DNA from: Candidatus Thalassarchaeum betae
Lineage (GTDB): Archaea > Thermoplasmatota > Poseidoniia > Poseidoniales > Thalassarchaeaceae
DNA length: 12,357 nucleotides
Assembly: GCA_003193925.1 (NCBI GenBank)
Contig: PSPG01000017.1
Span: forward strand, 1 to 12,357
Direction of reading: 5' to 3'
The notes below the pieces were generated by a model. The model searched no databases and was not told the origin of the DNA. It saw only the letters and a program-made list of their open reading frames with translations. The position numbers and the translations under genes are program-made. Below are positions 3 to 11,579 of this stretch, one piece after another (positions within the stretch are counted from its first letter, which is position 1; every line of letters begins with the position of its first letter).

Positions 3-3000
3 GGGAGACTCGGAGGGAGGGGGTGGAGTTGGTGGCTTTCCGTCGGCGATGTCCCACAGGTCATCGATAGACGTCTCCGAGGGCGCGCTCTCAAGCTCCT
101 CTAAGATTTCCTCTGCGCGCTCGGTTTCGCCCGGGCCTGAGTCTGGGGGTTCCGGTTCGTCGGCGGCTGGCTTGGTCGGTTTGGCAGTCTTGGGATGCGC
201 CTTCCGACTCCTACTCTTTGGTGGGGCCGGATCCTTCTCATCCAGCAGCGCCCACGACTCGTTGGGTAGCTGGGGTCTGGGCTTGCGCTTGCGGCCCTTC
301 AACAGCGAGCCATCCCCAGAGGCTCCTCCGGATTTCGACAGGGCCAGCAATGCCAACATAACGATTGCAGCCACGAACAGCATCGTCAGTGCGGTGCTGC
401 TGCGGATGGTCTCGAGAATGTTAAACGGCACGTCGTCGTCTTCCAGCGCGTCGTTGCAGCCGTCTGCGTCCCTGTCATTAGAGGAGTCAGAGACCCATCC
501 GACCACTCCGGTGGGGCACAAGTCGAGTTCGTCCGGGACGCCGTCGTTGTCGTCGTCGTCATCCTCCGAGAAATCCATGCATCCGTCGTTGTCGTAATCG
601 GGCTCAATCCCGGGCAGGGGACTGAGGGGGCAGGGGTCGAGGTCGTCGGGTATGCCGTCGTTGTCGTCGTCATCGTCTGCGAGGTCGTCGGCGCAGCCAT
701 CGCCGTCGCGGTCGTTGAACGGAGTCGACACCCAGTTCGTGAGCGGGCTGTCCTCACATGAGTCCAAGTCGGAGATGATGCCGTCGTTATCGAGGTCGTC
801 ATCCTCGAGCCTGTCATCGCAGCCGTCCCTGTCGAGGTCGACGCTGGCCGCGGTGACCTCTGGGCTCCGGATACAATCGTCGTCCACGTCTAGATGGCCG
901 TCGTTGTCGTCGTCCCCGTCCTCGCTGATGTCTCGGCAGCCGTCGCCGTCCCAGTCGTTGAAGGGCGAGGAGACCCATCCCACCTCGCCGTGGGGACACT
1001 CGTCGAGGTCGTTGTGCACTCCATCGTTGTCGATGTCCTCGTCCTCCACGAAGTCCTTGCAGCCGTCGCCGTCCCAGTCCAAGGCGTCTGAGGAGACCCA
1101 GTCGATGGCCCCTACAGGGCACAGATCGTCGGCGTCGCTCACGCCATCGTTGTCGTCGTCATCATCCTCCTGCAGGTCGTGGCAGCCGTCGCCGTCGTAG
1201 TCGAAGCTTGGATCATCCCACCAGGTCACGCCTGACGGGCAGTCGTCCTCGTCGTCGAGGTACGGGTCGCCGTCGTCGTTGTCGTCCTCGTCCCAGTCTC
1301 GGCAGCCGTCGCCGTCGTGGTCCTCGGACGAGTCCCAGTGCATGGCCCCGTCTGGGCAGTCGTCGAGGTGGTTCTCCACGCCGTCGCCGTCGTTGTCGGA
1401 ATCCTCGTAGCGGTCGTCGCAGCCGTCGCCGTCGCGGTCAACCGTGTCGTTGCCCATGTAGCCGGTGGGGCACAAGTCGAGCTCGTCCGGGACGCCGTCG
1501 TTGTCGTCGTCATCGTCCTCGGTGGAGTCCCTGCAGCCGTCGCCGTCATGGTCGGTCGTCTCATCGGAGAACCAGTCGGAGTTGCCCCACTGGCAGTCGT
1601 CCTCGGCATCCGGGACGCCGTCGGCGTCGTCATCGTCCCAATCGCCCTGGTTGACCATTTCCACGTGCAACAATATGCTGGTAATGGCCAGCTCGAAGCT
1701 GGCCGATGACACTGTCACCCAGAGGTCGAACGACTGGTTCTCGTTGACCTGCCTGAGGTTGGGCGCGCGCAGGAACAGGCTGATCGAGACGGATTCGCCT
1801 TCCATCAGGCTGACTGACGGTTGGTACGTGAAGCCGTGGCCGACCGTCGACACCCAGTAATCGGGGGTCTCGCTGGCGCTGAGATGGACGGTGTCGCCAC
1901 CTCCGGGGAGGGTGACTCCGATCAGTGTCATCGCCACATTCGCAGAGGCGTCGGGAGCGAGCGTCAAGTTGTCCGTTTGGCCGGGCTCGAGGACCAGATC
2001 TATCGAATAATCGGTCTGGGTCCAGAAGCAGAGCTGGGTCTCGAGATCGTTGTCTGGATAGGAGGTGGAGCAGTCTTCCGAGGTCCACAGGACGCTCCGG
2101 TACGGCCAGTCGAAGCCCACGATGGGCGGGGCCCCTGACCTAGTCTCGCCTGAATCGACGCCCATCAGGCTGGAGGCCCCGGAGGCAAGGACCTGGGTCT
2201 CGACCAACCCGTATGCCTGGTTGAGGGTCTGATCCAGGTCCAGATCGCCGTTGGAATCGCGCTGTGGCAACTGCAAACGGGTCCATCTGAGGTCGTTGCG
2301 GTAGTTGTCGGTCTCGAACCAGGTCATATGCACCGAGTCGTCCGAGTCAGAGGTGACCGTGGGGTACGCTCCCCACGTTAGATTTGAGTCGGCAATAGCC
2401 GTGTTGAGGACAGTGGTGGTCAGGTCGAGGTCGAGGCCGTCGAACTCGCCGTCGAGGTCGCCTTCGCGGTCCAGATCGATCTGCATGTAGTGGAGCTGGG
2501 ACGGGCCCTGGCGTTCTGTGACACCGAAGCGCCCGTCCGCCCAGACTACGTGCACGTTTCCGTAGTCGTCGATGTCGACGTCTGGGCTGGAGCTCCAGCC
2601 ATCTCCGTTCGTCAGACGGGTGTCGTTGGCGATTACGAGGTTGCCGTATCCCGAGAATGGGTCTATGGACGGGCCGATGTACTCGGCATACTGGTCATTG
2701 GTCGTGTCGGTGATGCTGCCAGGGGCGCCCAGCTCCCAGGTGACGGGGGGGTTGTTGATGAACGAGTACGGGTCCATCACAGTCAGGAATATCTCGGTGG
2801 AGCCCCCTGTTGAGAGATGCAACAAGCCGGAGACCATCAACTCCAACTCGGCCGAGTTCGATGCCGATGTCGGGAAACTGTACATCTGGCCCCCCGCGTC
2901 GGTGAGTCTTGTAGTCGAGCCGTTGCAGGTCCTGATGTTCAGGCCGGTGCCGTTCGGGCACTGGGCGAGGTCCATCATGTGCGATCCGACATCGGTGGAG

Positions 3001-4421
3001 CCGGAGCCGAAGCCAGCAGCCAGGAGGGGGACTGGGATGATGCCGGCGATGACGCAGGCGTCGTGGGCCTCGTTGATGCTCTGTGTGTCGTCCGACTGCT
3101 GGGCGGGGTCGCCGCCGTAGGGGCCCTCGTCAGAGATCGGGATCATGAATTTTAGTGCGCTTGAGTTCCAGTGGTGGTCAAGCTGAGTGGGTGGGTCGCC
3201 CGGGCTGATGCCGCTGCTGTCGTGCCACGACAGGCAGGCCCATGTCGAGCCCGGGCCCCACATCTCGCTGTAGTAGCCACCGTCCATAGGCAGGTCGATT
3301 GCGCCGCCGTCGTACATTACCTCGGTGAGTTCCCTGATGCCGCCCGAATCGTCTCCGGCTGAGAGGGGGGTGGTCCGGGGCCCTTGGCTGCCGGAGCCAC
3401 CGGTCTGGTAGGCCTCTGCGCAGTTGCCGCTTGTCGCAGCGCTGGGCCAGTTGCCGCTGAGCGCGTAAAGGGTCTCCATAACGGTGATGTCGGGATACTG
3501 CAGCAGCGGCTTCAGTCCGGCGAAGTAGCCACCGCTAGAGAAATAGCCGCCATAGAAGACTACGCACATGTCGGCCCACTCCGTGTCCATCGATCCGGAG
3601 GTGTCGATTGGCATGACCATCTCGATCGCGCTGCCTCGAGTGTCCTCCCACACCACCACGACGGTGTCGTCATCTCCCACTGAGATTGCCGGATGGCCCG
3701 CTTGGGAAATGATGGGTGTCACCAGTGTATGGCCTATCATCGTCATGAACCCGGAGGAGGTGTCGAATGCAACCATGGTGTAGTAGAGGTTAGGGGTGCT
3801 GTAGTACATGTCCAGCGAATCGTAGGTGTCGACCCAGACGATGTGCGCCGCGTCGTAGGAGTCCACTGCGATATCGGGGTCGGTTCTCGTGCCTGCTCCG
3901 TCCGCCAGCACGGTGGAGGGTTGGAGCGTCATGTTGGTGATGTCGCCCGCAGAGCCGTCATGGTCGTCTAAACCGGGGTCAATCAGGACGTACCTGATCT
4001 CCGTGCCGATGGACTCCCAGACGATGTGCGCCTTGGCTTGCGAGTCGACCACCATGACCGGATTGGTGATTGTCAGAGACGAGTTCGCGGGTATTTCGGT
4101 GGTGGATATCAGTGGATGCCCCGCGAGATTGAACAGGGCGTAGTTCAACGAGCCTGAGTAGGCGTCCTCCACCCACACCACGTGCACCCTGTTCAGGTGG
4201 TCAACGGCCCCCGTGACCTCGGCCGGGTCATCCATGTTGAGATTAGAGATCAGGGTCTGTATGGTGCTGTCGTTCGCGGTGTTGTTTGCCGTGAAATGGC
4301 GCTCGCCGGGGGTGTCAAGGACGGTATGCTGAGTGATGTGAATAGGGGCTGCGATGGAAAACAGGAGAATTGCTACCAGTATCACCGATTGGCGGTACGA
4401 ATTGAATGGCCCCCTAGTCAT
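3..4421 (-). CDS. Large secreted/membrane-anchored surface protein (signal peptide, beta-propeller with inserted vWA domain, Ig-like domain, thrombospondin type-3-like repeats, TM anchor, Pro/acidic tail); 3' end lies outside the window
   Basis: Manual translation from ATG at 4421 (MTRGPFNSYRQSVILVAILLFSIAAP...) stays open to the left edge (...DLWDIADGKPPTPPPPSESP), 1473 codons. The Ser-rich + strand ORFs in the track are its antisense shadows, all in one register. Hydrophobic N-terminus; D-x-x-x-x-x-H-[VI]-V-W blade motifs; IDTSGSM and ISDEG vWA motifs; DxDxDGC repeats; TM segment ALTMLFVAAIVMLALLAL (~339-392) followed by KGRKRKPR. Confidence 0.93.
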   Translation of the reverse strand, partial: MTRGPFNSYRQSVILVAILLFSIAAPIHITQHTVLDTPGERHFTANNTANDSTIQTLISNLNMDDPAEVTGAVDHLNRVHVVWVEDAYSGSLNYALFNLAGHPLISTTEIPANSSLTITNPVMVVDSQAKAHIVWESIGTEIRYVLIDPGLDDHDGSAGDITNMTLQPSTVLADGAGTRTDPDIAVDSYDAAHIVWVDTYDSLDMYYSTPNLYYTMVAFDTSSGFMTMIGHTLVTPIISQAGHPAISVGDDDTVVVVWEDTRGSAIEMVMPIDTSGSMDTEWADMCVVFYGGYFSSGGYFAGLKPLLQYPDITVMETLYALSGNWPSAATSGNCAEAYQTGGSGSQGPRTTPLSAGDDSGGIRELTEVMYDGGAIDLPMDGGYYSEMWGPGSTWACLSWHDSSGISPGDPPTQLDHHWNSSALKFMIPISDEGPYGGDPAQQSDDTQSINEAHDACVIAGIIPVPLLAAGFGSGSTDVGSHMMDLAQCPNGTGLNIRTCNGSTTRLTDAGGQMYSFPTSASNSAELELMVSGLLHLSTGGSTEIFLTVMDPYSFINNPPVTWELGAPGSITDTTNDQYAEYIGPSIDPFSGYGNLVIANDTRLTNGDGWSSSPDVDIDDYGNVHVVWADGRFGVTERQGPSQLHYMQIDLDREGDLDGEFDGLDLDLTTTVLNTAIADSNLTWGAYPTVTSDSDDSVHMTWFETDNYRNDLRWTRLQLPQRDSNGDLDLDQTLNQAYGLVETQVLASGASSLMGVDSGETRSGAPPIVGFDWPYRSVLWTSEDCSTSYPDNDLETQLCFWTQTDYSIDLVLEPGQTDNLTLAPDASANVAMTLIGVTLPGGGDTVHLSASETPDYWVSTVGHGFTYQPSVSLMEGESVSISLFLRAPNLRQVNENQSFDLWVTVSSASFELAITSILLHVEMVNQGDWDDDDADGVPDAEDDCQWGNSDWFSDETTDHDGDGCRDSTEDDDDDNDGVPDELDLCPTGYMGNDTVDRDGDGCDDRYEDSDNDGDGVENHLDDCPDGAMHWDSSEDHDGDGCRDWDEDDNDDGDPYLDDEDDCPSGVTWWDDPSFDYDGDGCHDLQEDDDDDNDGVSDADDLCPVGAIDWVSSDALDWDGDGCKDFVEDEDIDNDGVHNDLDECPHGEVGWVSSPFNDWDGDGCRDISEDGDDDNDGHLDVDDDCIRSPEVTAASVDLDRDGCDDRLEDDDLDNDGIISDLDSCEDSPLTNWVSTPFNDRDGDGCADDLADDDDDNDGIPDDLDPCPLSPLPGIEPDYDNDGCMDFSEDDDDDNDGVPDELDLCPTGVVGWVSDSSNDRDADGCNDALEDDDVPFNILETIRSSTALTMLFVAAIVMLALLALSKSGGASGDGSLLKGRKRKPRPQLPNESWALLDEKDPAPPKSRSRKAHPKTAKPTKPAADEPEPPDSGPGETERAEEILEELESAPSETSIDDLWDIADGKPPTPPPPSESP
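430..1645 (-). repeat. Ten tandem thrombospondin type-3-like Ca2+-binding units within the surface protein
   Basis: Ten ~38-41-aa units of the form DDDDNDGVPDxxDxCP-x(10-14)-DxDGDGCxDxxED, each with two Cys. Produces the gtcgtcgtc-rich DNA on the + strand. Confidence 0.9.
2810..3629 (-). other. von Willebrand factor A (vWA) domain inserted in the propeller of the surface protein
   Basis: AIEMVMPIDTSGSM (MIDAS DxSxS at 3605-3591), later WNSSALKFMIPISDEGP (beta4 with the conserved Asp), AHDACVIAGIIPVPL, MMDLA and GGQMYSF, in the usual vWA order. Confidence 0.8.
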
Positions 4422-6019: not shown

Positions 6020-6056
6020 TGTTTTCTGAACTTTGAGAGATTCTACAGGTGAGCGA

Positions 6057-7275
6057 ATGACAACAGTGCAATTCAATGTCGACAATCGTCAAGCTAAGCG
6101 AAATGTCGCTGTCTTGTTCTACGCACAGGCGATTCTCGGCTCGCAACAATCGATCAATATCATCCTCGGCGGGCTAGCAGGATTCGCTCTCGCCGGCAAC
6201 AAAGCATTGGCGACATTGCCGATCTCGGTCATGCTTCTCGCTTCGATGCTTTCGGCAGGTCCAGTTTCGTTATTCATGGGACGGTTTGGACGTAGGGCAG
6301 GATTTCTGCTCGGAGCAGCAGCAGGACTGCTTGGAGGAGGTTGCAGTGCATTGGCATTGTATGTCGGGCGATTCGACTTGCTTTTGCTAGGAGCGGGCTT
6401 GACTGGAATCTTCCGCTCGACCCACGGGTATTTCCGCTTCGCGGCAGCCGATACGGCTTCTGAAGAATTCAAACCGAAGGCGATTTCTCTGGTTTTGGCC
6501 GGCGGATTGCTGAGTGCATGTTCGCTCGACAACCGATGCAATAGATTCAACCCCTTATGCTGGCGCTTATCTCGCAGTAATCGCAATCAATGTGATCGGC
6601 TCACTCGGACTATTATTCCTCGATATCCCAACACCACCACGAAAAAAGAAAGGAGAAAAATCAGGTCGAGATCTCAAAGAAATCTTCACTCAACCAAAAA
6701 CGGTTGTCGCAGTTATCTGCGCCATGGTTTCCTACGCGATGATGACGCTTGTGATGACTTCTACAACGCTGGCGATGACAGCGACTGGATTCACCACCGC
6801 GGGGGCTGCAGACGTGATTCGCTGGCATATCATCGCGATGTTCGCGCCGAGTTTCTTCACCGGCGCGATAATCTCTCGAATCGGTCAATTACGGGTGATC
6901 ATGATTGGCCTTACACTACTTGGAATCGCGGCGTTCATCAGTGTCAGTGGGGATGAGGTCGAAAACTTCTACTTTGCATTAATCGCATTGGGGCTCGGAT
7001 GGAATTTCGGTTTCATCGGAGCAACAAGTCTGCTGACGACGACACACACAAGTGAGGAACAGGCGAAGGTGCAAGGACTGAATGATGTGCTGGTGTCAGG
7101 CCTCGTGACGATTGCCTCATTTGGCTCGGGCGCTATCCTGCAAATTTACGGTTGGGAATATGTGCAATATGCGATGATCCCAGCTCTTTCCTTGGCTGCC
7201 CTGGCCATTCTCTGGTTGGCGATCAAAACCAGACGTGCACGGAGCATAGAACCGAACTTCGGAGGTATGCGGTGA
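6057..7275 (+). pseudogene. MFS transporter, frameshifted near 6519
   Basis: ATG 6057 follows AGGTGA. The N-half has MFS motif A (MGRFGRRAGF) and YFRFAAAD...KAISLVLAGGLLSA. The C-half (HIIAMFAPSFFTG, GLGWNFGFIGAT, KVQGLND) is in a different frame (ORF 6514..7275). Confidence 0.85.
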
Positions 7276-7376: not shown

Positions 7377-7440
7377 AACCACTACCCTCACAGGAGGCAC
7401 ATCCCTTCCTCCGTTTCAGCTATGATGGCTACCTGAATTC

Positions 7441-7468
7441 AATTTCACGTTAGCCTCGCCCTGCCTGC
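7441..7468 (+). promoter_or_regulatory. Putative regulatory motif upstream of the PolB2 operon
   Basis: AATTTCAC-N8-CGCCCTGCCTGC ends 37 nt before ATG 7506. It resembles the motif upstream of the RadA-like gene. Confidence 0.45.
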
Positions 7469-7505: not shown

Positions 7506-7757
7506 ATGGGCAGGACAGTAGCGACTTGGAGGAACCGGATTGAATGCCGGGTTGAGAGGTGGACGGGTTTCCGGCGCGTGTTGAGAATGGCGGAGCGTGC
7601 CGAGTTCGATCGCATGTTGAGAGCGGCTCGCGAGCGGGCGGCGGCATGTGGGATGGTCCCCTCCTCCGACGTCTTCGAGCCGGCTGTACTAGCGATGCTG
7701 GTCGATGTCAACTCTAGGCTGACTGCCTTGGAGACTCGCGGTGACGAGGATGATTGA
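7506..7757 (+). CDS. Small alpha-helical PolB2-associated protein (arCOG07300-like)
   Basis: MGRTVATWR...WTGFRRVLRMAERAEFDRML..AR matches the MGRTxPT..W..FRRALR..D...FD.L pattern I recall for the small gene adjacent to archaeal polB2. Its stop overlaps the polB start by 8 nt. Confidence 0.8.
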   Translation: MGRTVATWRNRIECRVERWTGFRRVLRMAERAEFDRMLRAARERAAACGMVPSSDVFEPAVLAMLVDVNSRLTALETRGDEDD

Positions 7758-10137
7758 AGGATGGGTTCTGGACACCCATCTGGACTACGCATCGGAGCGC
7801 ATGGTACTGTGGGTTAAGAATGACGATGGCAGCGTCTCCAGCCACTCGTTCGAATGGAGCCCAGTGCTGCACGTACACGGCCAGTCGCAGCACATGGAGG
7901 AGTTGCGAAACGCACTGCTCCGTCCCGAGTACCAAGTGCCGTTCGGCAACCTGATCATCGGCCAGGAGCGTCAGCGAATTCGTCATGAGGATGCGGGACC
8001 CGTCGAGGTCCTGACCGTGGGGGTCTCTCGCCCTTCGAAGATACTCAGAGTCGCCGAGATGCTCTCTGCGAATGGGGCCTGGAGGAACTTTGAGCTGTTC
8101 TCTGTCGACCCTAAGATCGCGCAGAGATTCCTGCTCGACCTCGGAACGTTCCCGTTCGGTCGAGTGCGTGTCGAGGGGGGTGGTATCGTGCCACTCGACT
8201 CACGCACCGACGTGGATTGCCCCCTGCCACCGCTTCGTCAGGTGAAGTTGCACGTGGCATGCCATGATCTGCATGGCAAGCGGTGCGCGGGAGCCGAGAT
8301 AACGAGCGTGACCCTAATCGACATCGGCTGCATGGGATCGGAGGCCGAAGACGAGGTCTGGCACGCACGCGCGGAAGACTACGAGGAACCCGCTGCCTTC
8401 CTCGAGGCATTCGCAAGCGAGTTCGACCGCTTGGACCCGGATGTCGTGATTACGGACTACGGCGACAGCGTGGACTTCCCCGCGCTGCGAACTCTCGCCG
8501 AGAAAGAGGGTAAGCCGCTGCAGTTGAGCCGAAACGCGCACGACTGCACCCCCCGCCGCGAGGCGACCACGTCCTGGAGTTACGGCAGACTGCTGCGCTC
8601 CGACGCATATCATGCCCTCCAAGGGCGGCTGCACATCGACATGGGCACTTCGTTCATGGGCAAGGAGGGTGGCATGGAGGGTTTGTGCGAGCTCGCTCGC
8701 GTCTCCGGGCTCCCCGCCCAGGATCTCTCTAGGCTCTCCCCCGGCTCGGCCATTTCGGCTATGCAAATCCGCCAGTCGATGGAGGACGGCGTGCTGATTC
8801 CATGGAAGAAGAACCGCCCCGAGGACATGAAAACCGCCACGCAGATGCTATTCGCCGATCGGGGCGGGCTCTATCTCGACCCAAGACCGGGTGTCCACGA
8901 AGACGTATACGAACTAGACTACGCGAGCCTGTTTCCGAGCATCATCGCGACTAGGAACATCAGCCCGGAGACAATGAGTTGCGAGTGCTGTAACCCCGCT
9001 GGCACGGAGGATCGGCGCGATGGGCGCCTGCCTCTGGAGGCCGAGCGTGCCGCGAGGGAGATCGAGCGACGGTCGGAGGAGGGCGAGGTGCGCAAGCTGG
9101 TGGTCCCGGAGCTTGGTCTGCACGTCTGCACGAGGAGACATGGGTTCCTCGGTCGGGTGGTGGCTCCTATAATAGAGAGGAGGACCTACCTTAAGTCGAA
9201 GCGTAAGGAGAAGGGGGATGTCTGGGACAGGCGCCAGAACGTGCTCAAGTGGATTCTGGTCTGCTGCTTCGGATACACTGGGTACCGCAACGCGCGCTTT
9301 GGCAGGATTGAGTGCCACGAGGCGATTTGCGCATGGTCACGCGACATACTGCTAGATACCATCGAGGAGGCCGAACTCGATGGCTGGGAGTGCCTGCACG
9401 CAATCGTCGACTCGATATGGATCGCCGACACGCGGGGCCGCAACGAGGAGGAGAGGGCAGAGTCAATCTCCCGCCTGATCTCACGCATCGAGGCGAGGAT
9501 CGGCATCCCGCTGGAGCTTGAGGAGGTCTACGAGTGGATCGCCTTCGTCCCAAACCGTACCACCGGCGTGGGCGCCCTAACGAAGTACTTCGCTTACGGG
9601 CGCGAGGGCTGGAAGGTGAGGGGGATCGAGCTGCGGCAGCACTCCACCTGCAATTGGGTCCGCGACCTGCAGGAGTCGATCATGGAGATCCTGCGACAGG
9701 ACCCGCCCGGAGAGGCCCCCGCGAGGGGCGTCGAGCACCTGCACTACGAGCTGGCCCGCCTCCGAGGGGGCAAGGTCCCCCTGGCTGACTTGGTGGTGGG
9801 GCGTCGCGTCAGGAACGAGGTCGGCACCCATCGCGTCCTCAACCTCACGGCCGCTGCACTGTTGCGAGAACGGAGCTTGGGGCAGCGCACGCCACCCGGG
9901 CGCAAGGTGCGCTTCGCCGTGGTCGGCTGGGAGCGTCCCGACGCTGCGGATAGAATCAGGATGGAGTCTGAGGTCGAGGCGAGGACCCCCCCGACCTCCG
10001 GGCAGAGTGGCGACTGCGACTTCTACGAGCCCCTCGCCATCCGAGCCGCAACGGCGCTTCTAGCGCCGTTCGGCTGGTCCGAGGATGGGATCAGGGGGGG
10101 CAGGTCAGTGCAGACCTCACTGACGATGTGGGCGTGA
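7750..10137 (+). CDS. polB2: Family B DNA polymerase, archaeal PolB2 (Dpo2-like) subfamily
   Basis: Motif A LDYASLFPSIIATRNISPET; motif B variant RQNVLKWILVCCFGYTGY; motif C variant HAIVDS instead of YGDTDS, typical of PolB2; KVRGIELRQ. ExoI acidic residues not recognisable. C-terminal PIP-like QTSLTMW. ATG 7750 has GGTGA 5 nt upstream. Confidence 0.92.
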   Translation: MIEGWVLDTHLDYASERMVLWVKNDDGSVSSHSFEWSPVLHVHGQSQHMEELRNALLRPEYQVPFGNLIIGQERQRIRHEDAGPVEVLTVGVSRPSKILRVAEMLSANGAWRNFELFSVDPKIAQRFLLDLGTFPFGRVRVEGGGIVPLDSRTDVDCPLPPLRQVKLHVACHDLHGKRCAGAEITSVTLIDIGCMGSEAEDEVWHARAEDYEEPAAFLEAFASEFDRLDPDVVITDYGDSVDFPALRTLAEKEGKPLQLSRNAHDCTPRREATTSWSYGRLLRSDAYHALQGRLHIDMGTSFMGKEGGMEGLCELARVSGLPAQDLSRLSPGSAISAMQIRQSMEDGVLIPWKKNRPEDMKTATQMLFADRGGLYLDPRPGVHEDVYELDYASLFPSIIATRNISPETMSCECCNPAGTEDRRDGRLPLEAERAAREIERRSEEGEVRKLVVPELGLHVCTRRHGFLGRVVAPIIERRTYLKSKRKEKGDVWDRRQNVLKWILVCCFGYTGYRNARFGRIECHEAICAWSRDILLDTIEEAELDGWECLHAIVDSIWIADTRGRNEEERAESISRLISRIEARIGIPLELEEVYEWIAFVPNRTTGVGALTKYFAYGREGWKVRGIELRQHSTCNWVRDLQESIMEILRQDPPGEAPARGVEHLHYELARLRGGKVPLADLVVGRRVRNEVGTHRVLNLTAAALLRERSLGQRTPPGRKVRFAVVGWERPDAADRIRMESEVEARTPPTSGQSGDCDFYEPLAIRAATALLAPFGWSEDGIRGGRSVQTSLTMWA

Positions 10138-10853
10138 GGCCGGAATTCAAGCAGGGAGGTCTGGCCCTCGGCGAGCTCCGCCCATGGGACTGTCAGGCCA
10201 ATCGAGGCCAGATGCAGTAGGGATGTCGACCTCCCCCCTCGCCTCCCGCCCCGTCCGGCTCTGAATGCCCTCAGACAATCGTCTGCGGCATGCTCTAGGT
10301 TCGCCCGCAGGGCTTTCGGCAGGATCGGAGAGGTTCGTCGGCGTGTGGTGATGACCACCAGCGAGTCGGACGTCTCGGCAGTCGTGCGCAGGCCCTCCAG
10401 TGTCTTGCGGAGGAGCGCTCTGCCCTCGGCCCGGTTGATCTGTGGGTCTGCGAACATCCGCGCTAGGTCGGAGGCTACGACGAGCCGTCCTCCGGAGAGG
10501 CGTTCTGGAGGTGATTCCTCCGTTGCCTCGGCTGCCAGTCGCTCGACGATGGCCGTGGTCTGGTGTGCCGTGAAACCCCTGCACGCGTGCAGTCTGTCCA
10601 TGGCATCGCCAGGGCAGTCGCGCCAGAGTAGGAGCGAGAGGATGTCGGAGGGGTCGAACCTCATCCCTCCGTCTATCCAGTGAACGGGCCTGCCCTCGGC
10701 CAGCTCGTCGCAGACCATGCCATGCACGAGTGGCATCATCTCCCTCCTCTCCTGCTCGAGCAGGAGCAGAGTCCCGGTCCTCGGGCGGGGGAGTTGCAGA
10801 TCCAACAAGCGGTCCCCCCACGATATCCCGTGTCGTTCGGAAGCGGTAGCCAC
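10023..10853 (-). CDS. RadA/RecA-fold protein with degenerate Walker A (PolB2-associated type)
   Basis: PRTGTLLLLE (beta1, no GxxxxGKT), VHWIDGGMRFDP, LHACRGFTAHQ (the RAFTxYQ-type motif), LVVASD Walker-B-like strand, LVVITT. PIP-like QTSLLEF near the C-terminus. GTG start and true 3' end are uncertain. Confidence 0.75.
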   Translation of the reverse strand: MATASERHGISWGDRLLDLQLPRPRTGTLLLLEQERREMMPLVHGMVCDELAEGRPVHWIDGGMRFDPSDILSLLLWRDCPGDAMDRLHACRGFTAHQTTAIVERLAAEATEESPPERLSGGRLVVASDLARMFADPQINRAEGRALLRKTLEGLRTTAETSDSLVVITTRRRTSPILPKALRANLEHAADDCLRAFRAGRGGRRGGRSTSLLHLASIGLTVPWAELAEGQTSLLEFRPHAHIVSEVCTDLPPLIPSSDQPNGARSAVAARMARGS

Positions 10854-10894
10854 GGGCTATCGACTCGGCTTTCCATTTAGAGTGAGTCCAAGAG

Positions 10895-10921
10895 GCGGGC
10901 AGGACGTCTGAAAGTGAAAAT
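10895..10921 (-). promoter_or_regulatory. Putative regulatory motif in the divergent RadA-like/SRAP intergenic region
   Basis: Minus strand ATTTTCAC-N7-CGTCCTGCCCGC ends 41 nt before GTG 10853. A TCTAAAT TATA-like element lies ~22-28 nt before the start. Confidence 0.45.
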
Positions 10922-10943
10922 AGTGGGAGAAGCTTCGGGGAGC

Positions 10944-11579
10944 ATGTGCGGGCGTTTTGCGTTGGGCGCTGACCCAGAGTTGGTCGCACTTGTCTTCGAT
11001 GCCAAACTCGTCGCCCTACCTGTCCGTCCTAGTTGGAACATCGCACCAACGGATCCCGCCAACATCGTATACGACGATGGCGAGGGGAAGGTAATCGGTC
11101 CGATGCGCTGGGGCTTCGACCTCAGCAGCAGCCGGAAGGCGTTCAACGCCCGTCTGGAGACGATTCTGGACAAGTGGCGCTTCAAGAGGTCCGCGCAGTG
11201 GCACAGGTGCTTAGTCCCGGCCACGGGTTGGTACGAGTGGACGAAGTCCGAGGACGGCGGCAGGGACCCTCACTTCCTCACTTCGCCCGAGTCCGACTTG
11301 ATTGCCCTCGGTGGTCTATGGGAGAAGGACGCCGACGATGCCCGATTCACCATCATCACGAGGCCCGCCCTCGACGGCTTGCAGCACCTTCACGATCGGA
11401 TGCCTTTGGTCCTCCCCTCTGATAAGTGGGATATCTGGCTCAACCCCGACGGTTCTGAGGTTGCCGGAGATGAAAGTGTAAAGGTGGCTACCGATCGAAT
11501 CAATTTCTCCTATCACAGGGTTTCAAGGGAGGTGAACAACTCTCTCTCCGAGGGACCTGAGCTCGTGGATTCAATCTGA
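10944..11579 (+). CDS. SOS response-associated peptidase (SRAP/HMCES/YedK) family abasic-site protection protein
   Basis: The start must be ATG 10944 (MCGRF, catalytic Cys2) rather than 10914. Conserved WNIAPT, MRWG, FNARLET, RCLVPATGWYEW (Glu), HDRMP (His) and VSREVN. Confidence 0.95.
   Translation: MCGRFALGADPELVALVFDAKLVALPVRPSWNIAPTDPANIVYDDGEGKVIGPMRWGFDLSSSRKAFNARLETILDKWRFKRSAQWHRCLVPATGWYEWTKSEDGGRDPHFLTSPESDLIALGGLWEKDADDARFTIITRPALDGLQHLHDRMPLVLPSDKWDIWLNPDGSEVAGDESVKVATDRINFSYHRVSREVNNSLSEGPELVDSI

Follow-up and report, generated by a model that had tools for sequence, protein, structure and literature searches.

Do the four adjoining genes at positions 7506-11579 of contig PSPG01000017.1 from Candidatus Thalassarchaeum betae (assembly GCA_003193925.1) form one DNA damage-tolerance cassette, and does the last of them, a gene of the SRAP (YedK/HMCES) family, take part in it? 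The window analyzed here is the whole of this 12,357-base contig (C13) of a 1.48-Mb genome (G000) that is 92% complete. In the sunlit ocean, marine group II counts among the most common archaea; since it is uncultured, what is known of its damage tolerance comes from sequence only. The open reading frames (ORFs) of the block encode, in order along the window, PPB2 ("partner of PolB2"), the DNA polymerase PolB2, a RadA-like protein (iRadA) and SRAP. We consider it fairly probable that the locus is a PolB2 translesion-synthesis cassette in which SRAP is a lineage-specific fourth gene, with a putative shared regulation by DNA damage and a putative cooperation between SRAP and PolB2. The initial annotation of this DNA had read the block as a damage-tolerance "mutasome" composed of PolB2, a small partner, an inactive RadA-like protein and SRAP. 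That first interpretation is largely right but already in print.

We compared the locus with a family sample of 101 Thalassarchaeaceae (marine group IIb, MGIIb) genomes, which hold 29 PolB2 loci, and with an order-wide sample of 80 further Poseidoniales PolB2 loci, 34 of them from the Poseidoniaceae (MGIIa). The gene arrangement is not due to chance, since iRadA and PolB2 occur together in 29/29 PolB2 loci of the family. Among the further loci, iRadA is present in 79 of 80, lies on the strand opposite to PolB2 in 79/79 and adjoins the 3' end of PolB2 in 78 of these, the distance being ~2.2 kb in L112; the one locus where it was not found, L082, ends just past PolB2. Taken over the order, iRadA runs opposite to PolB2 in all 108 loci that contain it (109 examined). 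PPB2 is present in 26/29 family loci, the other three (L011, L021 and L028) being cut at a contig end, and in 74/80 of the further loci, where the misses fall mostly at contig ends.

In the window, PPB2 (7506..7757, plus strand, 83 amino acids) is followed by PolB2 (7741..10137, plus strand, 798 amino acids), whose likely start is the ATG at 7750, the position from which PolB2 orthologues align. The PPB2 stop codon and this ATG overlap by 8 nucleotides (nt). PPB2 and PolB2, joined by this overlap of stop and start codon, are predicted to form a single transcription unit, and iRadA (10023..10853, minus strand, 276 amino acids, GTG start) to be a separate unit converging on polB2. The two genes share a convergent 3' overlap of 115 nt (10023..10137), on which the initial annotation is silent and in which the third codon positions of both genes coincide. 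Overlaps of ~50-140 nt are found in most MGIIb loci, and small ones or none in MGIIa. Across the overlap, the polB2 and iRadA units may be transcribed antisense to each other. SRAP (10944..11579, plus strand, 211 amino acids counted from MCGRF, in an ORF that opens at 10914) diverges from iRadA over a spacer of exactly 90 nt (10854..10943), just as first described. This spacer holds A/T-rich stretches ~20-29 nt before the start codons of iRadA and SRAP, which we read as TATA-like. All four genes are under purifying selection: on orthologue pairs with synonymous divergence (dS) below 1, the ratio of nonsynonymous to synonymous divergence (dN/dS) was 0.03-0.12 for PPB2, 0.06-0.12 for PolB2, 0.09-0.12 for iRadA and 0.08-0.12 for SRAP.

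What the four proteins are can be read with unequal ease from databases, and the coordinates and identities first assigned to them are borne out by Pfam, alignments and Foldseek. The PPB2 candidate, of arCOG07300 type, has no match in Pfam or NCBIfam. Its N terminus reads MGRTVATWR in the window, and 26 sequences from three families, MGIIa and the second Thermoplasmatota family considered below (f16) included, share M1, G2, R3, T4 and R9 without exception. An MGRT N-terminal arm with arginines at positions 3 and 9 is what defines PPB2 in the main text of the paper that named it (PMC11791011).

PolB2 is of the Dpo2 type and matches PF00136 at 5e-18; it also matches NCBIfam model NF004418 at 1e-122, yet remains below the cut-off of that model. 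Aligned with the Deep Vent PolB structure (5h12), motif A is kept as LDYASLFPS for LDFRSLYPS, and in motif C the residues I555-V556-D557 stand at the D-T-D of the Deep Vent enzyme, so that the first aspartate is replaced. D393 and D557 are among the invariant residues of a 20-sequence alignment, in which the residues of motifs A and B are likewise invariant. The Exo I region (~residues 140-218) did not align to Deep Vent PolB, and an Exo II-like GDSVDFP is kept. At the other end, the C-terminal QTSLTMWA aligns with QTGLTAW at the extreme C terminus of the Deep Vent polymerase, which we take to be the PCNA-binding motif of that enzyme, and it looks like a PCNA-binding (PIP-like) motif itself. 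The replaced aspartate and the lack of an alignable exonuclease motif I would suit the older view of PolB2 as a catalytically dead relic, in which case the cassette would serve some role other than DNA synthesis. We regard this as very improbable. The loss of the first motif-C aspartate is typical of PolB2 and yet Sulfolobus islandicus needs its PolB2 for targeted mutagenesis, as reported in the main text of PMC11791011; moreover, the gene is under strong purifying selection rather than the relaxed selection that the initial annotation had named as telling against its proposal, and D557 and the motif A and B residues do not vary.

For iRadA we found no Pfam match. An AlphaFold2 model built on a 28-row alignment (pLDDT 82.7, pTM 0.78) has a RadA/Rad51 fold, and its best Foldseek matches are RAD51, RadA and DMC1 (E ~1e-12, probability 1.00, 17-20% identity). 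None of the 28 aligned sequences has GxxxxGK[ST] at the P-loop (Walker A) position; after strand 1 they read LLxEGxxRxx instead, in agreement with the earlier designation of this protein as inactive. A PIP-like motif, Q231-x-x-L234-x-x-F237 (Q-x-S-L-x-D/E-F in the alignment, L234 and F237 being at least 90% conserved), is followed by 39 residues that are predicted to be disordered. The PIP-like motifs of PolB2 (QTSLTMW, 10114-10134) and iRadA (QTSLLEF, ~10143-10163) are encoded less than ~50 nt apart on opposite strands. Selection on the conserved iRadA tail, SS..PNG..AR.AS, was considered and is thought unlikely. The tail is an antisense mirror of the invariant PFG region of PolB2 and so need not be selected itself; stops in the antisense frame arise only from Tyr, His or Gln codons of PolB2.

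SRAP is the most readily identified of the four, matching PF02586 at 1e-48 (166.1 bits against a cut-off of 27.1) over model positions 1-213 of 214. The initial annotation had described its Cys2/Glu/His residues as intact, and C2, E98 and H150, along with N68, are indeed invariant in 8 orthologues. The protein aligns end to end with the YedK and BB2244 structures, and C2, E98 and H150 fall on MCGRF, GWFEW and IHDRRP of YedK, the catalytic positions under what we take to be the residue numbering of that enzyme. It thus resembles E. coli YedK and human HMCES (6KBS, 6NUA and 5KO9) in its full-length match and in having Cys2/Glu/His in place. Unlike HMCES, it ends in ...ELVDSI without the C-terminal PCNA-binding extension that HMCES presumably carries, and it is encoded in a polymerase cassette. 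A complex prediction for iRadA with SRAP scored 0.00, which gives no verdict and favors neither contact nor its absence.

PolB2 mutasome-type operons of archaea and bacteria were reportedly described by Makarova et al. in 2014, and Aravind et al. are said to have noted SRAP genes neighboring bacterial SOS mutagenesis cassettes in 2013. Timinskas, Timinskas and Venclovas (2025) named PPB2 and iRadA, called PolB2, PPB2 and iRadA together a mutasome and modeled it as a heteropentamer, three PPB2 with one each of PolB2 and iRadA, that they liken to Pol V (PMC11791011, main text). The analogy with bacterial SOS mutagenesis cassettes drawn in the initial annotation agrees with this in-silico model. 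According to the same text, polB2 neighborhoods are enriched in orc1/cdc6 in archaea and in lexA in bacteria, SRAP and DUF72 are enriched "to some degree" near polB2 in both, and damage-induced expression of PolB2 operons is cited (PMC11791011). The SRAP link, put forward at first as undescribed for PolB2 loci, had therefore been published. A 2026 survey, in the passages we drew on, cites the archaeal PolB2 as an error-prone translesion-synthesis extender and gives SRAP-like proteins as putative partners for some Y-family polymerases of bacteria (PMC12926913).

The locus shares with the published mutasome the MGRT arm, the loss of the first DxD aspartate, a RadA fold that lacks an ATPase site, and clamp motifs; SRAP and DUF72 are shared neighbors as well, both being seen in f16. 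It differs in layout. The published genes are mostly co-directional and adjacent (the operon groups being compared here as the main text gives them), whereas in Poseidoniales iRadA is opposite in direction, would have its own promoter and often overlaps polB2 at the 3' end. Clamp-binding motifs are said to occur in iRadA or PolB2, "rarely in both" (PMC11791011, main text), whereas in the window both proteins carry PIP-like motifs; that of iRadA lies 39 residues from the end of the ORF, beyond the 30-residue limit of the published survey. Comparison with bacterial umuDC/Pol V as well as imuA-imuB-dnaE2 likewise brings out an error-prone polymerase that is accompanied by a RecA-fold partner and a small subunit bearing an N-terminal arm, a frequent SRAP neighbor, and a short operator common with the recombinase gene (recA there, radA here, as described below). 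The bacterial cassettes, however, use Y- or C-family polymerases and LexA boxes, whereas the present one has a B-family polymerase, unrelated proteins and no LexA, and is known from sequence alone. The cassette as such adds little, being a further member of the published PolB2 mutasome class with a SRAP neighbor already noted. What is added is a lineage-bound, facultative SRAP link and a Poseidoniales-wide variant with a separately transcribed, convergent iRadA.

How closely is SRAP tied to the cassette? PolB2 is present in 29/101 and SRAP in 8/101 family genomes. All eight SRAP genes (8/8) lie 810-1094 nt past the polB2 3' end, on the same strand as polB2 and divergent from the adjoining iRadA, and SRAP was found nowhere outside a PolB2 cassette in the 101 genomes. 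Nine of the 80 further Poseidoniales loci have SRAP at the same site, and 9/9 are MGIIb-like. When the PolB2 tree is rooted on MGIIa, the cassettes with SRAP form the early branches of each MGIIb subclade, and the presence or absence of SRAP requires 4 changes (shuffled mean 9.5), from which we derive a history that fits one gain and about three losses. The common MGIIb order is tRNA-intron endonuclease, PPB2, PolB2, iRadA, SRAP or nothing, and M6 peptidase; in the 17 loci that show both flanks, SRAP is present between iRadA and the M6 peptidase in 8 and absent in 9. In the window the four-gene block is flanked instead by an MFS transporter and MarC. Since these flanks differ from the usual ones, the block has been held together in two contexts.

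A second Thermoplasmatota family, f16, offers nine loci in which a co-directional iRadA-PPB2-PolB2 operon has SRAP 0.1-4.4 kb away. These loci were chosen by eye: among the matches listed, 10 genomes with both genes within 5 kb were picked. SRAP is divergent and upstream in five (with DUF72 between in four), directly upstream on the same strand in one and downstream in three. Also among the matches listed, SRAP and polB2 are ~43-45 kb apart in several genomes (G283, G422, G268 and G271) and on different contigs in many. Within MGIIb the evidence points to a SRAP-PolB2 link that is real, recurrent and old, but facultative. In a further family (f34), a short contig (L193, 1-3188) carries three to four tandem SRAP-domain ORFs beside a PolB2-like gene, one of the ORFs being a 558-amino-acid fusion with the C-terminal half of SRAP only.

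A second line of evidence comes from a short repeated box upstream of these genes. In the window a TTTCAC-type box, TTCAATTTCACGTTAG, lies at 7438..7453 on the plus strand, its 5' end 68 nt upstream of the PPB2 ATG, and two overlapping boxes, ACTATTTTCACTTTCAGACGTC, lie at 10903..10924 on the minus strand, with the 5' end 71 nt upstream of the iRadA GTG, so that the spacing ahead of the two genes matches. From 73 unique PPB2 upstream regions we built a position weight matrix (PWM) and counted a forward match of 11 bits or more as presence of the box. It is a tandem hexamer of consensus TTCACTTTCACTTTCA whose 5' end falls 66-83 nt before the PPB2 ATG, and it precedes PPB2 in 38/42 MGIIb and 33/34 MGIIa loci. 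At the same distance and in the same orientation it precedes iRadA in 20/45 MGIIb and 30/32 MGIIa loci. A PWM scan of the whole of G000 returned four matches of at least 18 bits, namely the PPB2 site, the iRadA-SRAP spacer (18.2 bits, second or third of the four), the radA site and a site without known function that precedes a small ORF and a DUF3860 gene. The radA gene of G000 (PF08423 at 4e-86) has the box 66-81 nt upstream. Across the order radA is present in 61/61 genomes, and the box lies upstream of it in 43/50 Poseidoniales loci, genomes without PolB2 included, against a background of 8.3% of 350-nt windows of the sampled loci that carry such a match. That the cassette genes and radA have this box in common suggests that they are switched on together.

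The spacer shared by iRadA and SRAP contains the box in eight of ten SRAP loci, with one partial match and one locus left unresolved. In 7/10 the SRAP ATG follows the end of a copy by 36-62 nt, compared with 53 nt at PPB2. The orientation before SRAP is opposite to that at PPB2, as is also the case for radA in MGIIb. Among Poseidoniaceae, a Y-family polymerase gene (IMS, 2e-37) is divergent from iRadA within ~120 nt across a box-bearing spacer in five loci, and in nine loci a gene with a photolyase domain has its end no more than 80 nt upstream of PPB2.

Several observations stand beside these. The Y-family polymerase loci are L089, L091, L093, L105 and L108 (e.g. L093:11247-12410), and the slot is the one held by SRAP in MGIIb. 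The photolyase genes are found among L079-L086, L094 and L103 (e.g. L094:3528-5501), and in six Poseidoniaceae loci a weakly matching YdjM-like membrane protein gene follows iRadA. In L062 (11095-11449) the iRadA-SRAP spacer is 353 nt long and includes three tandem copies of a ~70-nt unit (CGCACACTGTATGTGAGGGTGTGCGGGTGATG). The strongest box of G000 (C16:48168-48183, in L114; 23.5 bits, TTCACTTTCACCTTCA) lies ~68 nt before an ORF of 91 amino acids that has no family match and is followed by a DUF3860 gene (PF12976 at 8.5e-16); this site may mark a further, unknown member of this regulon. One strong box falls just past the 3' end of a gene whose product we would read as replication factor C.

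The tandem box was not found in f16 loci, which have a motif of their own. ATA[CG]TTTC[AG] occurs in 18 copies in 111.6 kb, compared with 2 for the reversed control, and 18/18 copies stand just upstream of a TATA-like stretch that lies ~15-20 nt past the motif 3' end. It precedes the iRadA operon in 8/9 cases, SRAP in 5/9 and radA in 4/5 (loci L185-L192 and L227-L230). In L187, two back-to-back copies occupy the SRAP-iRadA spacer.

Both motifs recall an element of Sulfolobales. In the parts of PMC6061795 used here, Sulfolobus Orc1-2 footprints AATAGTTTCRGWDTACTCWS, which contains ANTTTC, and binds AATAGTTTCRG...; the ANTTTC element occurs in damage-induced promoters 23-55 nt before the ATG. 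The f16 motif (ATAGTTTCAG or ATACTTTCA) matches this element over 9-10 bases and is the better match of the two; the Poseidoniales box contains ACTTTC or AATTTC, which fits ANTTTC. All three lie upstream of damage-related genes. Unlike the Sulfolobales element, however, the Poseidoniales box is a two- to three-fold tandem repeat whose 5' end lies 66-83 nt before the ATG rather than at -23 to -55. The two systems also belong to different phyla, and G000 has two Orc1/Cdc6 paralogues without assigned Orc1-2 orthology. Compared with a LexA operator, a tandem hexamer upstream of the core promoter is more like an activator than a repressor site. We tentatively propose, at slightly less than an even chance, that the TTTCAC-repeat box and the f16 motif are the Thermoplasmatota counterpart of the Orc1-2 element and define a compact SOS-like regulon of radA, PPB2-polB2 and iRadA, to which SRAP or, in some Poseidoniaceae, a Y-family polymerase would be joined through bidirectional spacers. 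The literature searched yielded no archaeal paper that contains the box strings and none on Poseidoniales radA damage promoters.

A number of our own results pull against a cassette with SRAP as a working member under common control. The initial annotation had called for a survey of SRAP linkage to polB2. The linkage recurs (8/29 family loci, 9/80 further loci, nine f16 loci) and is not general, since 21/29 family cassettes are without SRAP and none of the 34 Poseidoniaceae cassettes has it (0/34). In Poseidoniaceae, SRAP is present in 34/58 genomes, outside PolB2 cassettes, and follows another gene by 8-12 nt in 17/17 loci (20 were taken, and three dropped in which the SRAP start was not matched by our pattern). 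In one locus scanned, the gene ahead is pheT, encoding the PheRS beta subunit (e.g. L167:743-3172), and a place behind pheT is, as we read it, a housekeeping position. No box was found within 300 nt of SRAP in any of these 17 loci. Furthermore, related genomes are not independent, so our counts overstate the number of events.

SRAP might accordingly be only the neighbor of a genuine PolB2 cassette, the two having a shared history in a variable region with neither coupling nor co-regulation. Besides the SRAP-free cassettes and the box-free housekeeping position just described, this view can draw on the window itself, a whole contig of 12 kb with patchy flanks whose spacer box is positioned for iRadA and not for SRAP. 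PolB2 was not found in other genomes of the genus (0/9, and 0/4 in a second search), and the flanking genes MarC and TauE are present in 3/12 and 4/12 other genomes of the genus, on different contigs. Because PolB2 was not found in the congeners searched and MarC and TauE are patchy, the contig looks like part of the flexible genome; with MarC and TauE so scattered, the within-genus comparison with an empty site drew no insertion boundary. Simple proximity of this kind nevertheless sits poorly with the finding that 8/8 SRAP genes in 101 family genomes occupy this single site, that the four genes stay together in two genomic contexts, and that in f16 the adjacency takes three other arrangements in which SRAP has its own copy of the motif found at iRadA and radA. 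The link has also been reported independently (PMC11791011, main text). We consider SRAP quite unlikely to be a bystander.

The case for common control has its own difficulties. The box is missing before iRadA in 25/45 MGIIb loci. Its enrichment is modest: the four matches of at least 18 bits in G000 compare with two after shuffling, and the exact 10-mer occurs 11-27 times per genome versus 4-10 times for a reversed control in four genomes, with 15/30 of its places falling inside a long open frame. No box lies upstream of either Orc1/Cdc6 paralogue of G000, and strong intergenic sites beyond the cassette and radA adjoin small ORFs without usable Pfam matches. The motif is also short and T-rich. 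The modest enrichment, the short T-rich sequence and the box-free Orc1/Cdc6 genes would suit a site for some other regulator, of the cell cycle, replication or the day-night rhythm for example, with its likeness to ANTTTC a coincidence, and in two genomes the strongest sites do lie beside small ORFs of unknown function. Against such an origin, every recognizable target has to do with DNA damage (radA, the PolB2 cassette, and the spacers of SRAP or the Y-family polymerase), two families of the order agree in the position and orientation of the box, and the f16 version, followed by its TATA-like stretch, agrees with the footprinted Sulfolobus element at 9-10 bases. A different regulator therefore seems to us somewhat unlikely, and damage control remains our preferred explanation of the box.

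Even under one regulon, SRAP and PolB2 need not pull in the same direction. HMCES crosslinks are described as guarding abasic sites against error-prone translesion polymerases and endonucleases, and by the same logic SRAP could be antagonistic, shielding abasic sites from PolB2, steering them to error-free repair and limiting mutagenesis. Either direction of coupling would fit our data. In the window, the only box cluster of the iRadA-SRAP spacer ends 19 nt before the SRAP ATG, overlapping the core-promoter region of SRAP; from there it would more easily repress than activate SRAP, and opposite regulation of SRAP and iRadA is possible. Elsewhere, by contrast, the motif before SRAP is placed in nearly the same way as before the polymerase genes (7/10 SRAP loci, and five f16 loci), and parallel regulation is argued for because of this resemblance in placement. 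An antagonistic SRAP strikes us as rather unlikely.

In the cooperative scheme that we favor, three PPB2, PolB2 and iRadA would assemble as in the published model, and the complex would dock on PCNA through the PIP-like motifs of PolB2, iRadA or both. After DNA damage a single regulator would bind the TTTCAC/ANTTTC box and raise radA, the polymerase genes and the spacer-sharing SRAP together; by analogy with Sulfolobus Orc1-2, this regulator may be an Orc1/Cdc6 paralogue. SRAP would crosslink through Cys2 to abasic sites in the single-stranded template, keeping the strand intact, and the PolB2 complex, as an error-prone extender, would extend or bypass at stalled primer ends at the SRAP-shielded sites.

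The box that ties the cassette to radA may offer, for the first time, a cis-regulatory handle on how marine group II responds to DNA damage, and within it lies the core of the only archaeal damage-response element that has been defined by experiment. If the proposed correspondence is true, ANTTTC would be an ancient damage operator common to two archaeal phyla, and the box would be a marker of damage-inducible genes in uncultured marine group II archaea that needs nothing but sequence, making damage regulons readable from metagenomes. Four defined proteins would then allow a test of whether the shielding of abasic sites favors error-prone bypass or holds it back.

Two further features of the window lie outside the block. 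The MFS transporter at 6033-7275 falls into two ORFs, 6033-6956 and 6514-7275, that overlap and differ in frame; past ~residue 160 the first becomes low-complexity. The split is probably the sign of a frameshift or pseudogene, or of an error in assembly. On the minus strand, a protein of >1473 amino acids (3-4421) runs off the contig. It has a hydrophobic N-terminal segment, a C-terminal membrane anchor and ~15 acidic repeats, DxDGDGCxDxxEDDDDDNDG, resembling calcium-binding thrombospondin-type-3 repeats.

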